64,000 bases of DNA from Spirochaetia bacterium (lineage in GTDB: Bacteria > Spirochaetota > Spirochaetia > SZUA-6 > Bin103): NCBI GenBank assembly GCA_965198005.1, contig CBDAOI010000004.1, positions 2,176,001 to 2,240,000 of the forward strand. The letters run 5' to 3'. The position numbers were made by a program, and so were the translations under genes. The notes beneath the pieces are model-generated. The model did no database searches, was not told the DNA's origin, and was given only the letters and a program-made list of their open reading frames with translations. Below, piece after piece: positions 16,910-25,033 of the stretch. The stretch's first letter is position 1. Every line of letters starts with the position of its first letter.

Positions 16910-18546
16910 TGAGCGCCCAAGGGGCACCGCCGGCGACTTCGCAACACCTGCTTCCGCCACCAGAGCCTGGAGTACGTGCAGGCGCCGGCACCGTGACCGG
17001 TGGCGCGGTCGGGCCAACGCACGCTCTGTCGAGTCTCGCAGCCTTGGGGCTGCTCGTGACGGGTACGCTGTGCCTGCTCGCGGCGGTCGGCTGCTCGGTC
17101 GGGGGGTTCCCCGACAAACCGTCGCCCACTCCCCTGGCCACGGTGACGCCATCCGATCCGACGCCGCCCGAGCCGGTGGCTCCCGTCGAGCCGTCCGACA
17201 CGCCCGCCACGCCGCCGGACGCGCCGGTTACTCCGGCCCCGGTCACTCCCGACCCGCCGATCGACCATGGCAATACGGCCGATACCGCAACCCTCATCCA
17301 GCCGGAGTCCCCGATCACCGGGCGGCTCGAAAGCGCGGACGACGTCGATTACTTCAAGCTCGAAGTGAGCTCCTCGAGCCTCGTGGTTGCAGCAGCCGAC
17401 TACGGCAAGATTTCGGACTACTTGTACCCCGACTACGGGAACGTCGTCGTCCGGATCGAAACCAGCGACTACCGGTCGGACAACGATGACCACTTTGACG
17501 CGGCGAGAGTGACCCTGTTCTCACCCCCGCCGCCGGCGTCTCCCAAAACACTCTACGTCAAGGTCACCAGCGCGCAGGGGGCAACCCGGTACGATCTTGC
17601 CGTCTGGTTGGCCGACCTCGCTGTTCCGAGCCACGCGGATGGACCCTTCCGGATCGACCTGTGGTTCCTCAGCCCGGAGCCGACCGCGGCGCAAAAGAAG
17701 ATCTTCGAGGAAGCCGTGCAGGTCTGGGAACGCGTCATCTCCGCGGGGGTGCGCGACTACTTCATGTCGAGGTCCTACTGGCGCTGCGACGACGACGATC
17801 CGTCCCCGTTCGGCCGGTACGTCGACGATCTGCTGATCTACGTCCGGATCGAGAGCATCGACGGTCGCGGCGGAACGGTGGCGCAGGCGGGGCCTTGCTG
17901 GGTGCGGGGGGCCGACGGCCTGCCGTTCGTGGGGAGCATGATCTTCGACAGCGCGGACTTGGCGAGACTGCAAGCTGACGGCCGGCTCCGCTCCATCGTC
18001 ACGCACGAAGCGGCCCACGTTCTCGGGTTCGGCGTGCGCTGGGACAACGTGCTCGGCGCCGACCTGCTTCCGCTGCTGCGAGAGCCGTCCATCGTCGATG
18101 ACATGCAAGTGCCGGGACGGGACACCTGGTTCGCCGGGCCGGACGCGATTGACGCGTTCGACGACGTCGGGGGCGCCGCGTACGCCGGGAACAAGGTGCC
18201 GGTCGAGAACGATACGGACAGGTTCGGCGCCGGCGGCCTGGACGTGCATTGGCGCGAGTCGGTATTCCGCGACGAGTTGATGACCTCCCTGGTGGGCGAG
18301 AACTTCCAACCGCTCAGCAAGGTGACCGTCGCGTCGTTCGCCGATCTCGGCTACGAGGTGGATTACTCCCATGGGGAGGACTACGCCCTTCCCGCCGCTC
18401 CATCGACCTTGTTGTCCGCGCGGATGGCAGCGCTCAGCGTCGACCGCGGCACGCATGCGTACCTGGGCGATGACGTGCGCTCGGGGCCGATCGGCGTGGC
18501 CGACGCGCCGGACGACCTGGAAGCAGTCATCGACCTGCTGCCGTGA
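16909..18546 (+). CDS. Leishmanolysin-like (M8) zinc metallopeptidase lipoprotein with PPC-like domain
   Basis: AVGC lipobox, Pro-rich linker, GRLESADDVDYF, HEAAHVLGF, HWRE, Met-turn ELMT. Confidence 0.8.
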   Translation: MSAQGAPPATSQHLLPPPEPGVRAGAGTVTGGAVGPTHALSSLAALGLLVTGTLCLLAAVGCSVGGFPDKPSPTPLATVTPSDPTPPEPVAPVEPSDTPATPPDAPVTPAPVTPDPPIDHGNTADTATLIQPESPITGRLESADDVDYFKLEVSSSSLVVAAADYGKISDYLYPDYGNVVVRIETSDYRSDNDDHFDAARVTLFSPPPPASPKTLYVKVTSAQGATRYDLAVWLADLAVPSHADGPFRIDLWFLSPEPTAAQKKIFEEAVQVWERVISAGVRDYFMSRSYWRCDDDDPSPFGRYVDDLLIYVRIESIDGRGGTVAQAGPCWVRGADGLPFVGSMIFDSADLARLQADGRLRSIVTHEAAHVLGFGVRWDNVLGADLLPLLREPSIVDDMQVPGRDTWFAGPDAIDAFDDVGGAAYAGNKVPVENDTDRFGAGGLDVHWRESVFRDELMTSLVGENFQPLSKVTVASFADLGYEVDYSHGEDYALPAAPSTLLSARMAALSVDRGTHAYLGDDVRSGPIGVADAPDDLEAVIDLLP

Positions 18547-18592
18547 GGAGAAGGTGCGCCCCCCTCGGGCCGGCATGTGCTACCATACCTGC

Positions 18593-19696
18593 GTGCCAAG
18601 ACTCGTAAGTGTCGAAGTTAACGGTTTCCGGTCCATTAAGGAAGCGAAGCTGGATCTCAGCCCGATCAACATTTGTGTTGGATCCAATGGAGCCGGAAAG
18701 AGCAATCTTATCGCCTTCTTCAAGTTGCTGAACGAGCTCATGGGCGGCCGCCTGCAGCACTATGTCGCTACCACTGGACGGGCGGCTGCCAATCTCTATT
18801 TCGGCCCGAAAATGACACCACAGCTTGAAGCGAAACTCAAATTCGAAGCCGATCAGGGCACGAACACTTACCATATGAGATTGTTCCACGCTGCCGGCGA
18901 TTTGCTCGTATTCGCAGAGGAAAGCCTCTCATTCCAGGCTCTCGATCGCGACTTTCCTCAACATGTATCTTTGGGAACAGGACATCAGGAGGCTCTAGTA
19001 AGAGAATTCGTCGAAGGAGAGCCGCTTCTGAATACTCTGAGGAACTTCCTGAATCACTGCCGCGTCTACCACTTCCATGACACTTCGCCGACTGCACGGA
19101 TTCACCAGCATTGTTTTGTCGAAGACAACCGCTGGTTGATGTCGGATGCCGGGAATCTCGCGGCGATCCTCTACCGAATGAAATCCGAGAGTAATGCAAC
19201 ATATCGTCGGATCGTGAGAAACATACGGCAGGTGGCGCCGTTCTTCCTAGACTTCGACCTCGAGCCGGCCGGTCCGCACAAGAAGGAGCTGCTCCTCAAC
19301 TGGCGTCACCGCGATTCGGATCTCCTGTTCGGCCCGCATCAGCTATCTGATGGAACGCTGCGTGCAATGTGCCTGATTACGCTGTTGCAGCAGCCGGGGG
19401 ATGACTTGCCCTACTTGGTCGTAGTCGATGAACCGGAGCTCGGATTGCATCCGCAAGCTCTCAATTTGATTGCATCACTGTTTCAGGCCGTAAGCGAGAA
19501 CTTGCAGATTCTCGTGAGTACGCAATCCAGCACGTTTGTAGATTGCTTCGATCCAGGGGACCTTATCGTCGTCGAACGAGAACAAGGCTCCACGACCTTC
19601 AAACGACCAGAGCCGGCAATGCTCGAAGCGTGGCTAGATGAGTACTCACTCGGTGAACTCTGGGAGAAGAACGTCATCGGCGGGGGACCGCATTAG
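18593..19696 (+). CDS. ABC-type (COG4637-like) ATPase, orphan
   Basis: GSNGAGKS, LSDGTLR, VVDEPELGLHP, STQS, LGELWEKNVIGG; AT-richer than its flanks. Confidence 0.88.
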   Translation: MPRLVSVEVNGFRSIKEAKLDLSPINICVGSNGAGKSNLIAFFKLLNELMGGRLQHYVATTGRAAANLYFGPKMTPQLEAKLKFEADQGTNTYHMRLFHAAGDLLVFAEESLSFQALDRDFPQHVSLGTGHQEALVREFVEGEPLLNTLRNFLNHCRVYHFHDTSPTARIHQHCFVEDNRWLMSDAGNLAAILYRMKSESNATYRRIVRNIRQVAPFFLDFDLEPAGPHKKELLLNWRHRDSDLLFGPHQLSDGTLRAMCLITLLQQPGDDLPYLVVVDEPELGLHPQALNLIASLFQAVSENLQILVSTQSSTFVDCFDPGDLIVVEREQGSTTFKRPEPAMLEAWLDEYSLGELWEKNVIGGGPH

Positions 19697-19727
19697 TGGC
19701 TCCCAATAAACAGACTTCGCAACTGCT

Positions 19728-22281
19728 TCACGTCTTCATCCGCGTGTCGGCGGGATCGAACGTCGTCAGGCCGGACGCGACGGTCACCGGAAAGCGCTCG
19801 TTCATGTACAGCACCTGCAGCTCGGTGGCGGGCACGGCGTGCTCGGGCGGCAGGTAGGCGAACAGCAGGTACCGGCCCACCGACGGCCCCATGCCGGCGG
19901 AAGTGACGCGCGACTCGCGACCGTGGCGGTCGACGATGCGCGCGCCGTCGGCGGTCAGGATCGGCTCGTTGCCGCCGGTGGGGAAGCGGGGGATGCCGGC
20001 CGCGCCGACGTGGTCGTCCATGGTCAGGGCGCACATCTGCGCCGCGGGGGCGGCGGCGCGCGCCTCGAGGTAGGCCGCCTTGCCGATGAAGTCCGCCGCG
20101 CTTCACCCGCGGCCGCGCCAGACCGGCCTCCACCGGCGAGTACTCGGCGCTGAGGTCGGAGCCCATCAGCAGGTAGCCCTTCTCCATGCGGCCGGTGGTG
20201 CCGTACACGCCGATGCCGACCGGCCGGGCGTCGAACCGGCGGCCCGCCTCCCACAGCGCGTCCCACAGGCGCACCCCATGCTGCGTGCGCGCGTAGAGTT
20301 CCCAGCCGCTGTCGCCCACGTAGGAGATGCGCAGCATGGTCACCGGCACGCCGTCGATGATCGCCTCCCGCACCGTGCCGTAGGGAAACTCCGCCTGCGA
20401 CAGGCCGGTGTCGGTGATGCCGGCCAGCAGGGCGCGCGCATCCGGCCCCCACACGCCGACGGTGCACAGCGCCGAGGACAGGTTCTCGAACTGCACCGAG
20501 CCGTCGGCCGGCAGGTGGCGGCGGAACCACACCTCGTCGCGCGCCCCGTCGAAAGCGCCGGTGACCACACGGAAGCGGTCGGCGGCCAGCCGCTGGATGG
20601 TGAGGTCGGCACGGATGCCGCCGTCCGGCGTGAGCAGCGGCGTGTAGATCGAGCTGCCCGCCGGCCGGTCGCACTTGTTGACCGTGAGCCGCTCCAGGTA
20701 GGGCACCACGCCGGGACCCGAGACGTCGAACACCTGGAACGCGCTCAGGTCGACGATCCCCACCTTCTCGCGCAGGTGCAGGTGCTCGCCGTTGATGATC
20801 GGCGACCACCAGCGCCGGTCCCACTCGTGCGGCCGGTCGGGCACGCCGTAGCGCTCCACCAAGTCGGCGTTCGACCCGTACCACTGCGGCCGCTCCCAGC
20901 CGCGCGCGTCGTAGTAGTCGGCGCCCAGGGCCTCCGTGCGGTCGTGGAACGGGGCGCGGTTCATGCCGCGTTCGGAGGCCCACTGCTCGCGCGGATGCAC
21001 GATGCCGTAGGTCTTGTTGAAGTGCTCGTCTGAGCGCGCGCGGACGTGCTGCTCGGTGCGCTCGTGGGGGTAGAAGCGGGTGATGTCGGAGGCGTGCGGA
21101 TCGCACAGCCGCGGGTAGCCGTAGGTGATCCACTCGGCGATCAGGCGCGCGGTGCCGGGCCCCTCCTTGATCCACACCGCCGCCGCCGCCCACAGCTTCT
21201 CCACCTCGGCGGTCTCGCCGAGCACCTGGTGCGTGTCCGGCGTCAGTGACAGCAGCCCGTTGACCGAGTACTGCATCTCCGACCCCGCGAGCAGCTCGCC
21301 CATGATCTCGCGTGCGTGGCCGAGCTGGGGCGCGAAGTCGTCGCCGGTGAACGGCAGCTCGGTGGGCGACCGCTCCGCCTCGGCGAGCGAGGGGATGTCG
21401 TCCGGGCGCACCAGGATCGGGCGATGGGCGTAGGAGCCCACCTCCATCGCCGTGTGGCTCTGCCGCTCGTACATGAACACGTCCACGTCACGCACGATCG
21501 GGTAGCCGATCTCGTTGCCGGTCCTGCTCAGCAGGTCGATCGGTCCCAGGTCGGCCATCTGGTGCACCGCCGCGGTGAGCGGGATGCTGGCCCCGGCCAT
21601 GGCGGCGATGCGCGGGCTCCACACGCCGCACGCGATCACCACCTGCTCGGTCGCGATGGCGCCGCGGTCGGTGACCACGGCGCGGATGCGCGGCCGGCCG
21701 AACGGGCGCGGCTCCACCTCCAGCCCGGTCACTTCGGTGTTGTCCAGCACGGTCAGCACGCCCTTGGCCAGCGCCCGCTCGCGCATGATGGTGCCCGCCT
21801 TCACCGAATCCACCACCGACACGCTCGGCGTGTAGAAGCCGCCCTTGATCACCGCGCCGTTGACGAACGGCACCCTGGCCACCACCTCGGCCGGCGTCAG
21901 CAGCTCGGTCTCGATCCCCCACGAGCGCGCCGAGGTCATGCGCCGGCGCAGCTCCTCCATGCGCTCCTCGGTGCGCGCCACCTCGACCCCGCCGCAGGTG
22001 GTGTTCACCCCCAACGCCTCGTACTGCCGCTGGCTCTCCAGCGTCAACATCGCGATCTCGCGGTTGTGATCGGTCGGAAAGATGAAGTTCGACGCGTGCC
22101 CGGTGGACCCGCCGGGATTGGGCAGCGGCCCCTTGTCGACCAGCACCAGCTCGTCCCACCCCAGCTCCGCCAAGTGCCCCACCAGGCAGTTGCCCACGAT
22201 CCCGGCGCCGATCACCACGATCCTCGCCCGCGCCGGCGCTACATTCGATCCTGATACCGTTTGTTCTTTCACGACGGCCAT
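19728..22281 (-). CDS. FAD-dependent oxidoreductase, dimethylglycine/sarcosine dehydrogenase family with GcvT domains; +1 frameshift at ~20100
   Basis: IGAGIVG, GSTGHAS, GWERP, RISYVGDSGWE, RMEKGY; deleting one base restores PRVK-AADFIGKAAYL...FDPADTRMKT*. Confidence 0.88.
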
Positions 22282-22392
22282 TGGCAAGATCCCGCAGGAT
22301 TTCGTCAAGCTTCGGAGGTCCAGGTTCAGTTCGCCCACGCAGGCCGGGGAGGCCGGCATGGCTATGGTTCCGCTGTCAGGCCGGCGCCAATA

Positions 22393-22432
22393 CTGAGGGC
22401 CGACGGGCCTTGACGGGCTTGGCGGCCCTCAG
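22393..22432. repeat. GC-rich inverted repeat/hairpin
   Basis: CTGAGGGCCG ... CGGCCCTCAG form perfect 10-bp arms. Confidence 0.7.
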
Positions 22433-22715
22433 CATTTGCCGCTCCTGCCGCTCCAGAAGAGCTTGACAGATTCCGCTCACTCTTGGTACCGTGCTGATAG
22501 CAGTACGCGGCAGCAGGTCTATGGTTCAGCGGGTTCGGGTCCATCAGGACGGTAGGGACGGGATTCGGACCCGCGACCCCTGGGTATCGCCAGGAGCACC
22601 GGTGTCTGAGGCCGGCGCAATAAACCACTCTGCCACCCTACCCTGCGGCGACTGGGGGCCGGCCGGCCGTGATTGGCTGGCGGCCCTCAGCGTTTTCCGC
22701 TCCCGTAGCTTGACA
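22420..22715 (+). repeat. Imperfect direct repeats flanking the tRNA (22420-22468 and 22678-22715)
   Basis: TGGCGGCCCTCAGC.TTT.CCGCTCC...AGCTTGACA occurs twice. Confidence 0.7.
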
Positions 22716-23683
22716 CAGGCGGCCAACGGGATGGATGCTGCGCGGCCATCCAGCGTGTTTGCCCGGATGCGTCGCTCGATCAGGTCGACGAACGTGGGGT
22801 TCAACTCTACTCCGACCCATCTTCTTCCCAGGTCCTGGGCGGCGAGCAGCGTCGTGCCGGAACCGGCATATGGGTCGAGTACCACGTCGTCCGGACGGCT
22901 GGTAATGGCTACGCATCTCCGCGCCAACCTCATCGGCATCATCGCGGGATGATCATCCATCGTACCGTTGCGCCGTTGGGGCTCCGTCGGGATCTCCCAC
23001 ATTGTCCGCAAGCGGCGCCCGTTCGGACCGCGGACGACGTCGACGTCATAGTAGTAGTCCTGACTCTTGGAAAGCAGAAAAACCGTCTCATGCGCCTTGG
23101 TGGGACGATCACGAACCGATTCCGGATGCGCGTTCGGTTTGTGCCAGATGACTTCCGACCTGAGCCACCAACCGGCATCCTGAAGCGCGAACGCGAGGCG
23201 CCAGGGAATGCCGATCAGATCCTTGGGCTTGAGTCCGTCCGGCGTCACTGGCCGAACCGACATCGCGCGTGCTCGGTTCTTTCGGTCCGGCGCGCGATAG
23301 CGACGGTTTCCCGAGGTATAGGCGTCTCCGACGTTGAGCCACACGGTGCCGTCGTCGGTGAGAACGCGCCGGATCTTTTCGAAAGTCTCCACGATGTTGT
23401 CGAGATAGTCGGTCAGTGGGTCATCGCGACCGATCTGCCGCTCGACTTCGTAGTCGCGCAGCGACCAGTACGGCGGCGAGGTCAACACCGTCCGGACACT
23501 CCCGGCGGGCAGGGCGTCCACGGCTTCACTCGCGCACCCGCACACGAGTACGGACCGATCCAACGCCACCGTGGAGGTCAGACCATGCGCGTCCAGCCGA
23601 ACGTAATGGTGGTGTCCAGGATGCCTGACGGTGCCCACCGCAGCTTGGCGCCGTGACGTTACCTTCATGGGGTCGCTCCCCAT
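22544..23683 (-). CDS. Site-specific DNA methyltransferase (N4C/N6A, beta class), orphan; start uncertain; C-terminus reads through the tRNA
   Basis: TSPPYW precedes DPYAGSGTT; PKDLIGIPWRLAFALQ; SVRDRPTKAHE; HPA. Confidence 0.88.
   Translation of the reverse strand: MGSDPMKVTSRRQAAVGTVRHPGHHHYVRLDAHGLTSTVALDRSVLVCGCASEAVDALPAGSVRTVLTSPPYWSLRDYEVERQIGRDDPLTDYLDNIVETFEKIRRVLTDDGTVWLNVGDAYTSGNRRYRAPDRKNRARAMSVRPVTPDGLKPKDLIGIPWRLAFALQDAGWWLRSEVIWHKPNAHPESVRDRPTKAHETVFLLSKSQDYYYDVDVVRGPNGRRLRTMWEIPTEPQRRNGTMDDHPAMMPMRLARRCVAITSRPDDVVLDPYAGSGTTLLAAQDLGRRWVGVELNPTFVDLIERRIRANTLDGRAASIPLAACVKLRERKTLRAASQSRPAGPQSPQGRVAEWFIAPASDTGAPGDTQGSRVRIPSLPS
22550..22642 (-). tRNA. tRNA with serine-type body and CAG anticodon (tRNA-Ser(CAG) or pseudo-tRNA)
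   Basis: Folds as GGTAGGG-TG-GCA GAGTGGTTTAT TGC-G-CCGGC CTCAGAC ACCGG-TG CTCCTGG CGATAC CCAGGGG TC-GCGGG TCCGAAT CCCGT-CCCTACC-G. Full cloverleaf, long variable arm, G73, no encoded CCA. Confidence 0.8.
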
Positions 23684-23771
23684 CGTAAACGATCGACGGC
23701 CACTTGTCCGCGCCGCTTCGGGCGCCGCGCGCGTCGTCAAGGTGTACGTCCGAGGCCTCTGAAGCCGGCGG

Positions 23772-24887
23772 TCAGATGCGTCCGGTCCGGTGCAGCAGCT
23801 TCAGGTGGTTGCGCACGTTGTCGTGCTCGAAGTAGGCGTCCTGCAGGTGGCGGCGGCCGGTCGAGCGCAGCGCCTCACGCCCATGCAGCACGCGGTGCGC
23901 GGCGATCAGCAGAATCTGCCCGCCCTCCAGCCGCAAGCAAGCCTGGGCGCCGGAGGCGTTGACGCGGGTCGACAGCTCGTGGTAGGCGGCGTAGAAGTCG
24001 CCCAGCCGCGGCGCGGACAGCGGAACGGCCTGCATCTGTTGGGTGTTGAAGCGCAGCAGCCTGACGTTGCCTGCGCCGTCCAGCTCGACCATGGGATTGA
24101 CCGCGTAGCTCTCGTCCTGTTCACTGAACAGCCGAAACGGCACCGGTACCGCGCACAACGTGTGGAACTTGTCGGGAAGGTCGCTGCGCAACCCGTCGAG
24201 CACGCCGAAGCCGTCCACGATCGAGGACCCGCCGCCCTCGCACTCGTTGGCCAGCATGTGCAGCACCTGCACGCTCGGCGGCCAGTTGTAGCTGGTGAAG
24301 TCGTTGTGCGGGGCGATCGGCAGGTCGGTGTGCGCGATGCTGTATCCCCTGGGGTCGACCACCACGTTGTGGATACGGTCGAACACCACCTCGCGGATCG
24401 GACCCAGGCGCGACGCGAGCTGCTCCGACGAGTCCGGTTCGGTGGGAGCGTTGACCAGCACGCACGCGCCGGTCCGCAGGAACTCCTCGATCAGGTCAGC
24501 CCCGGTCCGGTCGTCGCGCAGAAACTCCTGGTAGTCGAACCGGCGCGGGCGGAACCGGCCGTCCCAATACGTCAGCTCGGAGCGCAACGGCACGCTCGGG
24601 ATGGCGAGCTCCCACGGGCGATAGCGGGTGCGGTGCCCGTCCGGCCAGACGATCGCCAGCGCCTCGTCTTCGCGGCCGGGATGTTCGATGGCGACCCGCA
24701 GCGGCCGGAGTTCCTTCGCCACGCGGAAGATGTGGAACCGCTTCTCCGTGGTCTGCAGCACGCGGCACTCGCCGCAACCGCAGTTGTCGCGCAGCCAGAG
24801 GCAGGGAAGAACGGTCTCCCCGCCACCATACCAGACCGCCGTCAGGGCATCGCCGTGCTCGACGACGCGGCTGATGGAGTGCTCCAT
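23772..24887 (-). CDS. Gamma-butyrobetaine hydroxylase-like Fe(II)/2OG dioxygenase (TauD family)
   Basis: Zn-binding WLRDNCGCGEC...WPDGH, HND (HxD), RVLHGR; GAGG RBS. Confidence 0.88.
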   Translation of the reverse strand: MEHSISRVVEHGDALTAVWYGGGETVLPCLWLRDNCGCGECRVLQTTEKRFHIFRVAKELRPLRVAIEHPGREDEALAIVWPDGHRTRYRPWELAIPSVPLRSELTYWDGRFRPRRFDYQEFLRDDRTGADLIEEFLRTGACVLVNAPTEPDSSEQLASRLGPIREVVFDRIHNVVVDPRGYSIAHTDLPIAPHNDFTSYNWPPSVQVLHMLANECEGGGSSIVDGFGVLDGLRSDLPDKFHTLCAVPVPFRLFSEQDESYAVNPMVELDGAGNVRLLRFNTQQMQAVPLSAPRLGDFYAAYHELSTRVNASGAQACLRLEGGQILLIAAHRVLHGREALRSTGRRHLQDAYFEHDNVRNHLKLLHRTGRI

Positions 24888-24993
24888 ATTCAACCACCTC
24901 GATCCGTCGTGACCGGTCTGCGGCGCGCGCACACCGGAAGCCAGGGCGAAGGCCTGCTCCGCCATCGACGTGAAGCATGCAAACTGTGCAACC

Positions 24994-25033
24994 GATTTAA
25001 TAGGCAGAACCTGAATTGTCAAATGTTTTTTTT
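24994..25033 (-). promoter_or_regulatory. Sigma70-like promoter for the dioxygenase
   Basis: Minus strand: A-tract, then TTGACA-17 nt-TAAATC. Confidence 0.45.

Follow-up and report, generated by a model that had tools for sequence, protein, structure and literature searches.

Which amino acid would be carried by a transfer RNA (tRNA) whose body and anticodon point to different amino acids is the question raised by a short minus-strand gene at 22550-22642 of the stretch analyzed here, 64,000 nucleotides from the genome of a Spirochaetia bacterium (the window). ARAGORN, which calls no other tRNA in the 64-kb window, labels this gene tRNA-Leu(cag), and an earlier note, made from the sequence alone, had proposed that a serine-type body is combined with a leucine anticodon. 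The proposal was borne out: a body of serine type with an anticodon of leucine is well supported by the comparisons described below. We refer to the molecule as the CAG tRNA, and the features of its locus are collected in Table 1.

The same 93 bases match Rfam RF00005 over its full length (1-71), scoring 48.0 bits (E 3.5e-07; gathering score 29). The acceptor stem GGUAGGG/CCCUACC provides the pairs G1:C72, G2:C71 and U3:A70, and the D stem has 4 bp (G10:C25, C11:G24, A12:U23 and G13:U22) with a 9-nt loop of the ordinary tRNASer type. The anticodon arm consists of 4 bp plus a C31.A39 mismatch, with the loop CU-CAG-AC; the variable region of 24 nt forms a stem of 7 bp, or 8 bp if the closing G.U is counted; and the T stem GCGGG/CCCGU of 5 bp carries the loop UCCGAAU, with C at position 55. 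At the 3' end the discriminator G73 is followed by UCC, and CCA is not encoded. In total, 28 of 29 stem pairs are intact in the window allele, and all the structural details given in the earlier note (the cloverleaf, the three acceptor pairs, C11:G24, G73, the 7-bp variable stem and the loop) are present in the sequence. The unconstrained fold is not a cloverleaf: its minimum free energy is -42.7 kcal/mol (z -2.0), and the cloverleaf, at -38.4 kcal/mol, lies 4.3 kcal/mol above this minimum.

G73, G1:C72, G2:C71 and C11:G24 are known from Escherichia coli as identity elements of tRNASer, and all four are present in the CAG tRNA. The comparison was extended to the tRNAs of the host genome (G000; 4.89 Mb in 4 contigs, 66% G+C), which has a canonical tRNALeu(CAG) elsewhere, at C4:64839-64922, together with four more tRNALeu, a cluster of four tRNASer and a single class II tRNATyr. 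The discriminator is A73 in all five host tRNALeu and G73 in all four host tRNASer, as in the CAG tRNA. The D loops are of the GAAAUUGGUAGAC type in the five tRNALeu and of the GAG(Y)GGUCGAA type in the four tRNASer; that of the CAG tRNA, AGAGUGGUUUA, is Ser/Tyr-like and does not have the leucine arrangement GAA-UUGG-UAGAC.

Covariance models were then built from 11 tRNASer (R1; 4 host sequences, 3 of a Variovorax plasmid array and 4 incidental ones) and from 9 tRNALeu (R2), none of them picked for likeness to the CAG tRNA. The CAG tRNA scored 63.3 bits with the serine model and 34.6 bits with the leucine model, a gap of 28.7 bits; thus a best score with the leucine model, which the earlier note had named as a refuting outcome, was not seen with these models. 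Four untrained tRNASer(UGA) used as controls scored 78-88 bits with the serine model and 36-44 bits with the leucine model (three of the four appearing in the leucine list). The host tRNATyr scored 70.4 and 38.3 bits, respectively, and the serine model therefore separates Ser from Leu, not Ser from Tyr; a tyrosine identity of the CAG tRNA is ruled out by G73 together with the anticodon. In the model alignments the CAG tRNA also has the serine-type junction of the variable arm, with one free base on each side (U before the stem and C after it), and G15/C48, as in tRNASer. Among the long tRNAs collected, the 14 most similar to it (74-77% identity) are all Ser or Ser-like, with no true tRNALeu.

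The anticodon itself is not that of a serine tRNA (NGA or GCU) but CAG. It is no assembly error, since positions 22606-22608 show no difference in any of the public sequencing runs with contigs over the locus; a validation by reads had been proposed earlier, and CAG was found unchanged in contigs of three studies. A genuine though unusual leucine tRNA, charged by leucyl-tRNA synthetase and serving as an extra CUG isoacceptor, would agree with this anticodon, with the ARAGORN label and with the class II form shared with tRNALeu, but it is very improbable in view of the deficit of the leucine model, G73 in place of the A73 of all nine tRNALeu aligned (five host and four other), a D loop that is not GAAUUGGUAGAC-like, G15/C48, the serine-type junction and A37, which is G37 in the host tRNALeu(CAG).

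Three features had been listed in the earlier note as possible signs of attenuation or of a pseudogene, namely the missing CCA, the UCCGAAU T loop and the C31.A39 mismatch. The first of them has no such meaning in this genome, where CCA follows none of the tRNA genes listed by ARAGORN and its absence is the rule. For the second, the nearest plasmid match to the CAG tRNA is instructive: it is a tRNASer(UGA) in a 23-tRNA array on plasmid 3 of Variovorax sp. RA8 (NZ_LR594664.1), and it has in common with the CAG tRNA the D arm, the anticodon-loop end A37-C38 and the T arm with C55. A pattern scan joining the D-arm motif and the UCCGAAU T arm yielded 38 genome and 11 viral loci, which were typed by ARAGORN. 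Serine anticodons (UGA or GCU) were found at 16 of the 38 genome loci and at 9 of the 11 viral ones, so that the T loop in question is common to 25 tRNAs with serine anticodons. As C55 is seen in ordinary tRNASer, it is a regular tRNASer variant and no sign of decay. Among these caveats, C31.A39 appears to be the only weakness of the window allele that remains. A metagenome relative (L066) has the same anticodon arm with U31:A39, one transition away from C31.A39.

The same scan returned 16 class II tRNAs with G73 and a non-serine anticodon (15 genome loci and 1 viral locus of the 49), the remaining loci being 2 class I tRNAMet matched by chance and 6 without a tRNA call. The anticodons of the 16 are UAU (nine), GAU (two), GUA (two), GAC, UAC and UUA (one each). 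A second pattern, combining a serine-type D arm with a CUCAG loop, matched 13 metagenome loci and no locus in the viral contigs. Ser-body CAG tRNAs are present at five of the 13, with four distinct sequences (L061, L062, L063, which equals L070, and L066); the CUCAGAC loop recurs unaltered in three of them, and L062 shows a C31.C39 mismatch. A further two loci encode Ser-body tRNAs with AGC, and six are chance matches.

Additionally, 24 genomes of the taxonomic family were searched with the serine model. A second Ser-body tRNA was found in the host itself (G000:C2:608640-608737, plus strand; L083:6001-6098). It is 98 nt long, has the anticodon GAG (Leu CUC/CUU) and scores 68.9 bits with the serine model and 38.7 bits with the leucine model; all its stems are paired, and it has G73, a 10-bp variable stem and a normal UUCGAAU T loop. 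The search also found a GAU (Ile) version in genome G020 (L086:3001-3092), a GAC (Val) version in G018 (L087:3001-3092), a degenerate serine-derived pseudo-tRNA in G021 and an extra ordinary tRNASer(CGA) in G003.

A structural alignment was made of 27 sequences, 26 with non-serine anticodons and one ordinary tRNASer. Of the pair cells, 97.5% are standard, and 22 of the 25 pairs show compensatory change on both sides, a result that none of 500 shuffles and no slid register came near; the alignment was fitted to the model, which biases it towards the structure, and the margin is large. The pairs G1:C72 (27/27), G2:C71 (26/27) and C11:G24 (26/27) are almost invariant, and mismatches cluster at the ends of the anticodon stem (4/27 at 27:43 and 4/27 at 31:39). 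In the searches that were blind to the anticodon, i.e., the first pattern scan and the family search, the anticodons of 17 of the 20 tRNAs of this kind match codons for Ile, Leu or Val. As the UAU tRNAs are in many cases related to one another, this bias is a pattern to test and not a statistic. By sequence and predicted structure, the CAG tRNA is a member of a scattered family in which a serine body is combined with a non-serine anticodon, in most cases one for Ile, Leu or Val codons.

Several members and relatives deserve a separate description. ARAGORN mislabels part of the host GAG tRNA as tRNA-Val(cac); the neighbours of this gene have no Pfam or NCBIfam family, except for a Uma2-like open reading frame (ORF) and a weak IS6-like match. 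The acceptor stems of the L086 and L087 tRNAs resemble those of the taxonomic family's own tRNASer. The pseudo-tRNA of G021 (L085:3001-3089) is a degenerate copy of the family's tRNASer(GCU), in which the anticodon arm is replaced by the palindrome CCGUUUUAAAACGG and the T stem has a mismatch; it illustrates a decayed tRNASer relic in this clade. The tRNA(CAG) at L063:4049-4139, on a metagenome contig of 65% G+C, has a fully paired anticodon stem. At L060:1046-1140 and L064:1635-1724 there are Ser-type class II tRNAs with U73 and a UCAGCAA loop (anticodon AGC, C33). On a Gemmatimonadota contig, L034:3186-3482 holds three odd tRNAs in a row: a Ser-body tRNA with the ochre anticodon UUA, a tRNA with a leucine-like body (64.4 bits with the leucine model) that ARAGORN labels tRNA-Ala(UGC), and a weaker third match between both.

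Natural bacterial tRNAs of this kind have been described as allo-tRNAs (Mukai et al. 2017, Nucleic Acids Res 45:2776, PMC5389517), and our comparison is with the accessible text of that paper. Like the CAG tRNA and its relatives, allo-tRNAs have a long variable arm, G73 or U73, serine identity and non-serine anticodons; some read CUG, CUC or UUA; they are sporadic and are found near transposon-related genes and toxin-antitoxin systems; and UAU is the commonest of their anticodons, as in the present scan. They have 35 different anticodons, with UAU predominant, and their 9/3 forms read UUA, UUG, CUA and CUG. Two allo-tRNAs put Ser at CUC and UUA in E. coli, with growth arrest or toxicity, whereas six allo-tRNA(UAU) variants were inactive there (PMC5389517). 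They are reported from Clostridia, Proteobacteria and Acidobacteria, and what defines them is an 8/4 or 9/3 branch of acceptor and T stems together with a D arm that resembles that of tRNASec in its long stem and tetraloop (PMC5389517). The CAG tRNA and its family, in contrast, have the ordinary 7/5 branch and the ordinary tRNASer D arm; an 8/4 or 9/3 fold of the CAG tRNA is ruled out, as the eighth pair would be U8.U and the ninth G9.G. The CAG tRNA would thus work like an allo-tRNA, yet by the definition in the paper's description it is not a member.

The tRNASer(CAG) of the yeast CUG-Ser clades is similar in combining a tRNASer body with CAG, which is possible since seryl-tRNA synthetase (SerRS) ignores the anticodon, and in occurring, in the CUG-Ser2 clade, alongside a tRNALeu(CAG); it differs in being eukaryotic, vertically inherited and tied to a genome-wide reassignment of CUG, and in having G33 and, in the CUG-Ser1 clade, m1G37, where the window tRNA has U33 and A37 (PMC11415595, accessible text). 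In the present host, unlike in those yeasts, CUG is not reassigned, as its codons stand at conserved Leu positions in both genes tested.

Streptomyces and Kitasatospora tRNAProX is accompanied by a dedicated prolyl-tRNA synthetase paralogue, whereas the present host has one canonical SerRS gene and no extra synthetase next to the CAG tRNA gene. In the accessible text of a mistranslation review, the tRNAProX genes are likewise bacterial accessory tRNAs whose body and anticodon disagree and are proposed to be deliberate mistranslators, but they have proline identity with Ala, Asn or Thr anticodons (PMC11415595). Arrays of tRNA genes on plasmids and phages, such as that of Variovorax sp. RA8 plasmid 3, are alike in providing the nearest plasmid match, which points to a mobile origin; the anticodons of the Variovorax array match their bodies, whereas the window gene is solitary and mismatched. 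No report of a class of 7/5 Ser-body tRNAs with non-serine anticodons was found in a full-text literature search. As far as their text was accessible, the mistranslation review PMC11415595 mentions no bacterial tRNASer of ordinary fold with Leu anticodons, a further review (PMC7609411) adds nothing on allo-tRNAs beyond PMC5389517, and the tRNAscan-SE 2.0 paper (PMC8450103) treats the disagreement of isotype and anticodon in general terms only.

Table 1. Features of the CAG tRNA locus; coordinates are positions in the window.
Feature	Coordinates	Strand	Basis and remarks
tRNA, class II, serine-type body, G73, 7/5 cloverleaf	22550..22642	-	93 nt; ARAGORN, Rfam, Ser versus Leu models, pair list
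Anticodon CAG (CTG on the plus strand)	22606..22608	-	Sequence; no differing letter here in runs X1, X3, X7 and X12
Read-through tail of the methylase ORF, about 70 codons, non-conserved	22544..22753	-	Translation; covers repeat B and the whole tRNA
Orphan N6/N4 DNA methyltransferase, conserved body	22754..23740	-	Pfam PF01555, E 3.2e-48; SPPY and DPYAGSGTT motifs; start codon uncertain
Hairpin repeat copy B	22645..22712		CTGGGGGCCG ... CGGCCCTCAG, then GTTTTCC on the plus strand; repeat family D1, inverted pair I3
Hairpin repeat copy A	22380..22455		CTGAGGGCCG ... CGGCCCTCAG, then CATTTGCC on the plus strand; repeat family D1, inverted pair I1
FAD oxidoreductase fused to an aminomethyltransferase domain, dimethylglycine/sarcosine dehydrogenase-like	19693..22359	-	Pfam DAO, FAO_M and GCV_T; downstream neighbour
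TauD / gamma-butyrobetaine hydroxylase-like dioxygenase	23772..25022	-	Pfam TauD and GBBH-like_N; upstream neighbour
Stretch covered by the RNA-library contig	22509..22662	-	Run X12; tRNA with 20 nt upstream and 41 nt downstream

As shown in Table 1, the minus-strand order is dioxygenase, methylase, CAG tRNA and dehydrogenase-like gene. The CAG tRNA had been described earlier as hidden in a DNA methylase gene. It does overlap the methylase ORF (22544-23740), but only in the non-conserved read-through tail, past the conserved domain: the Pfam N6_N4_Mtase domain ends at residue 322 (about 22774), and the DNA homology to relatives ends at 22755-22774. The protein is 72-78% identical to those of six relatives, four of which end 16-20 residues past IERRI and two of which have unrelated tails. 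The window methylase departs from them after IERRIRANT (about 22754), and its frame stays open for about 70 more codons, across the whole tRNA, until a stop at 22544. This indicates that the native end was lost at a rearrangement and that the tRNA lies 'inside' the ORF by way of the tail only. At the DNA level seven relatives share the methylase with about 80% identity, over 22755-23606 only, in other neighbourhoods and with no tRNA nearby.

The G+C content at third codon positions (GC3) is 0.75 in the methylase and 0.88-0.89 in the neighbouring genes. The dehydrogenase-like gene is found with 84-92% DNA identity in 19 of the 23 other family genomes, and in a genome of the same genus (G001) the slot between dioxygenase and dehydrogenase is filled by about 880 nt of unrelated DNA. 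From the rearranged methylase end, the other DNA in the G001 slot and the lower GC3 of the methylase, we describe the locus as a small islet of foreign DNA that occupies a variable slot, with a betaine-catabolism gene on either side. With the dehydrogenase as query, tblastn reached at most 51% identity among plasmids, and the Atlas yielded only methylase clusters. A BLAST search of phages with the tRNA and its flanks gave no match, and no transposase, toxin or antitoxin gene lies next to the window's CAG tRNA.

The tRNA is flanked by two hairpin copies of about 70 nt each, with a mean column identity of 80% (alignment A5); copy B begins 3 nt from the 5' end of the tRNA, on its upstream side, and copy A is located between the tRNA and the dehydrogenase start codon. 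That the hairpins represent a dispersed repeat family was ruled out, as no second copy of 22360-22760 exists in this genome. A repeat of 18 nt (22356-22373 and 22513-22530) was also considered as a dehydrogenase leader duplicated and split by the tRNA, and was rejected because the intervening sequences are unrelated and the match is short.

Contigs of public runs carry the locus in several versions. The X1 contig covers 22327-22829 and the X7 contig 22518-22742, with one differing letter each, and the X3 contig covers 22247-22959; across the tRNA, the reference allele is identical in the X1, X7 and X12 contigs, which belong to three additional studies. The X12 contig comes from a metatranscriptome: it is 185 nt long, has a depth of 13.3 and one differing letter, and runs into a 31-nt end unlike the window. 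This contig suggests that the tRNA is transcribed and that the module is present in another context. The rest of the 801-nt stretch examined had no cover in this run, which says nothing about the flanking genes because the contig comes from another context. At 22538, 12 nt downstream of the tRNA, all four runs including the RNA library have C where the window has G, which probably reflects variation between strains or an error in the assembly of the window.

With little more than even confidence, we favour the view that the CAG tRNA is a chargeable but weak and dispensable passenger, an accessory tRNA derived from a tRNASer and horizontally acquired. The anticodon loop of the acquired gene would have been altered to CU-CAG-AC, and the gene would have landed, within the variable slot, at the rearrangement junction that removed the native end of the orphan methylase. 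It would be transcribed, possibly on the methylase transcript because no promoter was found; its product would be trimmed and receive CCA as all host tRNAs do, would be charged with serine by the one SerRS of the host, an enzyme that does not recognize the anticodon, and would be a weak competitor of the canonical tRNALeu(CAG), so that some CUG codons would receive Ser.

Codon usage was determined from 1163 long ORFs. CUG accounts for 58.2% of the Leu codons, in agreement with its earlier description as a very common leucine codon here, and for 5.7% of all codons; CUC and CUU make up 26.6% and 4.7% of the Leu codons, and the CAG and GAG tRNAs together could address about 89% of them. Because CUG is 5.7% of all codons, Ser at CUG would be costly, which points to a dispensable passenger in this host. 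The passenger is probably attenuated through C31.A39, appears to be undergoing loss already in some strains and would be no recoding device. A reassignment of CUG is ruled out by the CTG sites of two neighbouring genes, which match Leu in relatives, and by codon frequencies, as total Leu reaches 9.8% of the codons only with CUG counted. Since the genome reads CUG as Leu, any serine insertion would be mistranslation and not reassignment.

A number of observations weigh against this view. At the CTG codons of the two neighbouring genes, 473 of 521 aligned positions in relatives are Leu and not one is Ser. The X12 contig may derive from carried-over DNA, as transcript ends and strand are not visible in contigs, and its run into unlike sequence means that it stems from another context or strain. 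Further points against a chargeable passenger also form the case for an inert relic, left by a mobile element, neither matured, charged nor used and drifting to loss. The C31.A39 mismatch weakens the anticodon stem. The 704-nt X3 contig differs by six substitutions and a 9-nt deletion, and three of the six substitutions fall within the 93-nt tRNA (binomial P = 0.034); these three, G1>A, U8>C and G10>A, are each at an invariant or nearly invariant position of the family. Neither a sigma-70-like promoter nor an intrinsic terminator was found on either strand of 22200-23000. A plain DNA search found no copy of the CAG tRNA in the 23 other family genomes. Moreover, the junction is a patchwork with duplicated hairpins, the relative G021 has a clearly degenerate serine-derived pseudo-tRNA, and the inactivity of allo-tRNA(UAU) species in E. 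coli (PMC5389517, accessible text) shows that membership in such a family is no guarantee of activity.

The reference letters are also present in X3, and intact and damaged alleles thus coexist in nature, which argues against strong purifying selection and is expected of a dispensable or harmful gene. We nevertheless regard the inert relic as somewhat unlikely, given that nearly all stem pairs of the reference allele are intact, that this allele is identical in contigs of three runs, that an RNA-library contig lies over the tRNA and that compensatory change is strong across the family.

The genes around the other family members were examined as well. Transposase or integrase genes are present near 12 of 26 loci with Ser-body mismatched tRNAs, within the stretches examined: IS1595-type transposases at L016, L022, L036, L047, L049 and L064, usually 120-370 nt from the tRNA; IS1-like DDE proteins at L031, L040 and L087; a DDE_Tnp_1 transposase at L062; and tyrosine integrases at L066 and L086. 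Other recurring neighbours are HTH_3 proteins with small ORFs, a CopG antitoxin, the SocA/Panacea domain, DUF3800 and HARE-HTH proteins. There are also housekeeping-like settings: L063 lies between a threonine dehydratase gene and rpsI/glmM (ribosomal protein S9, GlmM), and L061 beside a gene like that of isoleucyl-tRNA synthetase. As individual cases, the L086 tRNA (G020) adjoins a P4-type integrase and an IS3 transposase, the L087 tRNA (G018) adjoins the IS1-like DDE protein, and the L064 tRNA lies 180 nt downstream of the IS1595 transposase, with a CopG antitoxin and a DUF3800 protein nearby.

On an Acidobacteriota contig, L049:5991-7002 comprises an N6_N4 DNA methylase gene, 58 nt, a co-oriented Ser-body tRNA(UAU) and, on the other side, a converging IS1595 transposase gene. 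This layout repeats that of the window, with the methylase directly upstream of the tRNA and co-oriented with it. A specific methylase-tRNA partnership is unsupported, as the two methylases are alike at the family level only and the adjacency occurs at 2 of 26 loci.

These surroundings could mean that the CAG tRNA is a functional RNA outside translation, for instance one that serves as a decoy or replacement when a tRNA-targeting toxin or an anticodon nuclease attacks, that takes part in a toxin-antitoxin or defence module, or that is used by a neighbouring mobile element. The recurrence beside IS1595-type transposases and IS1-like DDE proteins, the HTH_3, CopG, SocA/Panacea, DUF3800 and HARE-HTH neighbours and the repeated methylase layout would fit such a role, and the same suspicion was voiced for allo-tRNA(UAU) by Mukai and co-workers in the accessible text of their paper (PMC5389517). 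We consider it quite unlikely: the window copy adjoins no transposase, toxin or antitoxin gene, no convincing terminal inverted repeats enclose the transposase and the tRNA at the four loci tested (L049, L036, L064 and L022), the methylase similarity does not go beyond the family, and the acceptor stem, G73 and the variable arm are fully conserved, which fits a need for charging.

The chargeable passenger remains the view that we favour. In a more far-reaching reading, the 7/5 Ser-body tRNAs for aliphatic codons may constitute a widespread, undescribed class of mobile 'mistranslators', perhaps a conditional module that scrambles the proteome; we think this unlikely. If it were true, such a module would be a tRNA toxin serving addiction, abortive infection or diversification under stress. 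Changes of the genetic code and deliberate mistranslation have their raw material in natural tRNAs in which amino-acid identity and anticodon do not agree; for bacteria, we found two such groups in the literature, the allo-tRNAs with their odd structure and the tRNAProX family. The window locus, its GAG partner in the host and their relatives would represent the same trick on an ordinary tRNASer scaffold. With a fold under clear selection across many phyla and genes beside mobile DNA, they are testable candidates for mistranslation with Ser at Leu, Ile and Val codons. The main interest lies in the second copy with a Leu anticodon in the same genome and in the breadth and structural conservation of the family. 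They also hold a warning for annotation, as labels based on the anticodon only make such genes tRNA-Leu, tRNA-Ile or tRNA-Val.

A further gene in the vicinity of the islet encodes an AAA_21/AAA_15 ATPase (18371-19696, plus strand). The gene lies in a stretch of low G+C content (0.60), 3 kb from the orphan methylase, and its product matches the NCBIfam model of the methylation-associated defence ATPase MAD3 below threshold, with 89.9 bits where the cut-off is 420.

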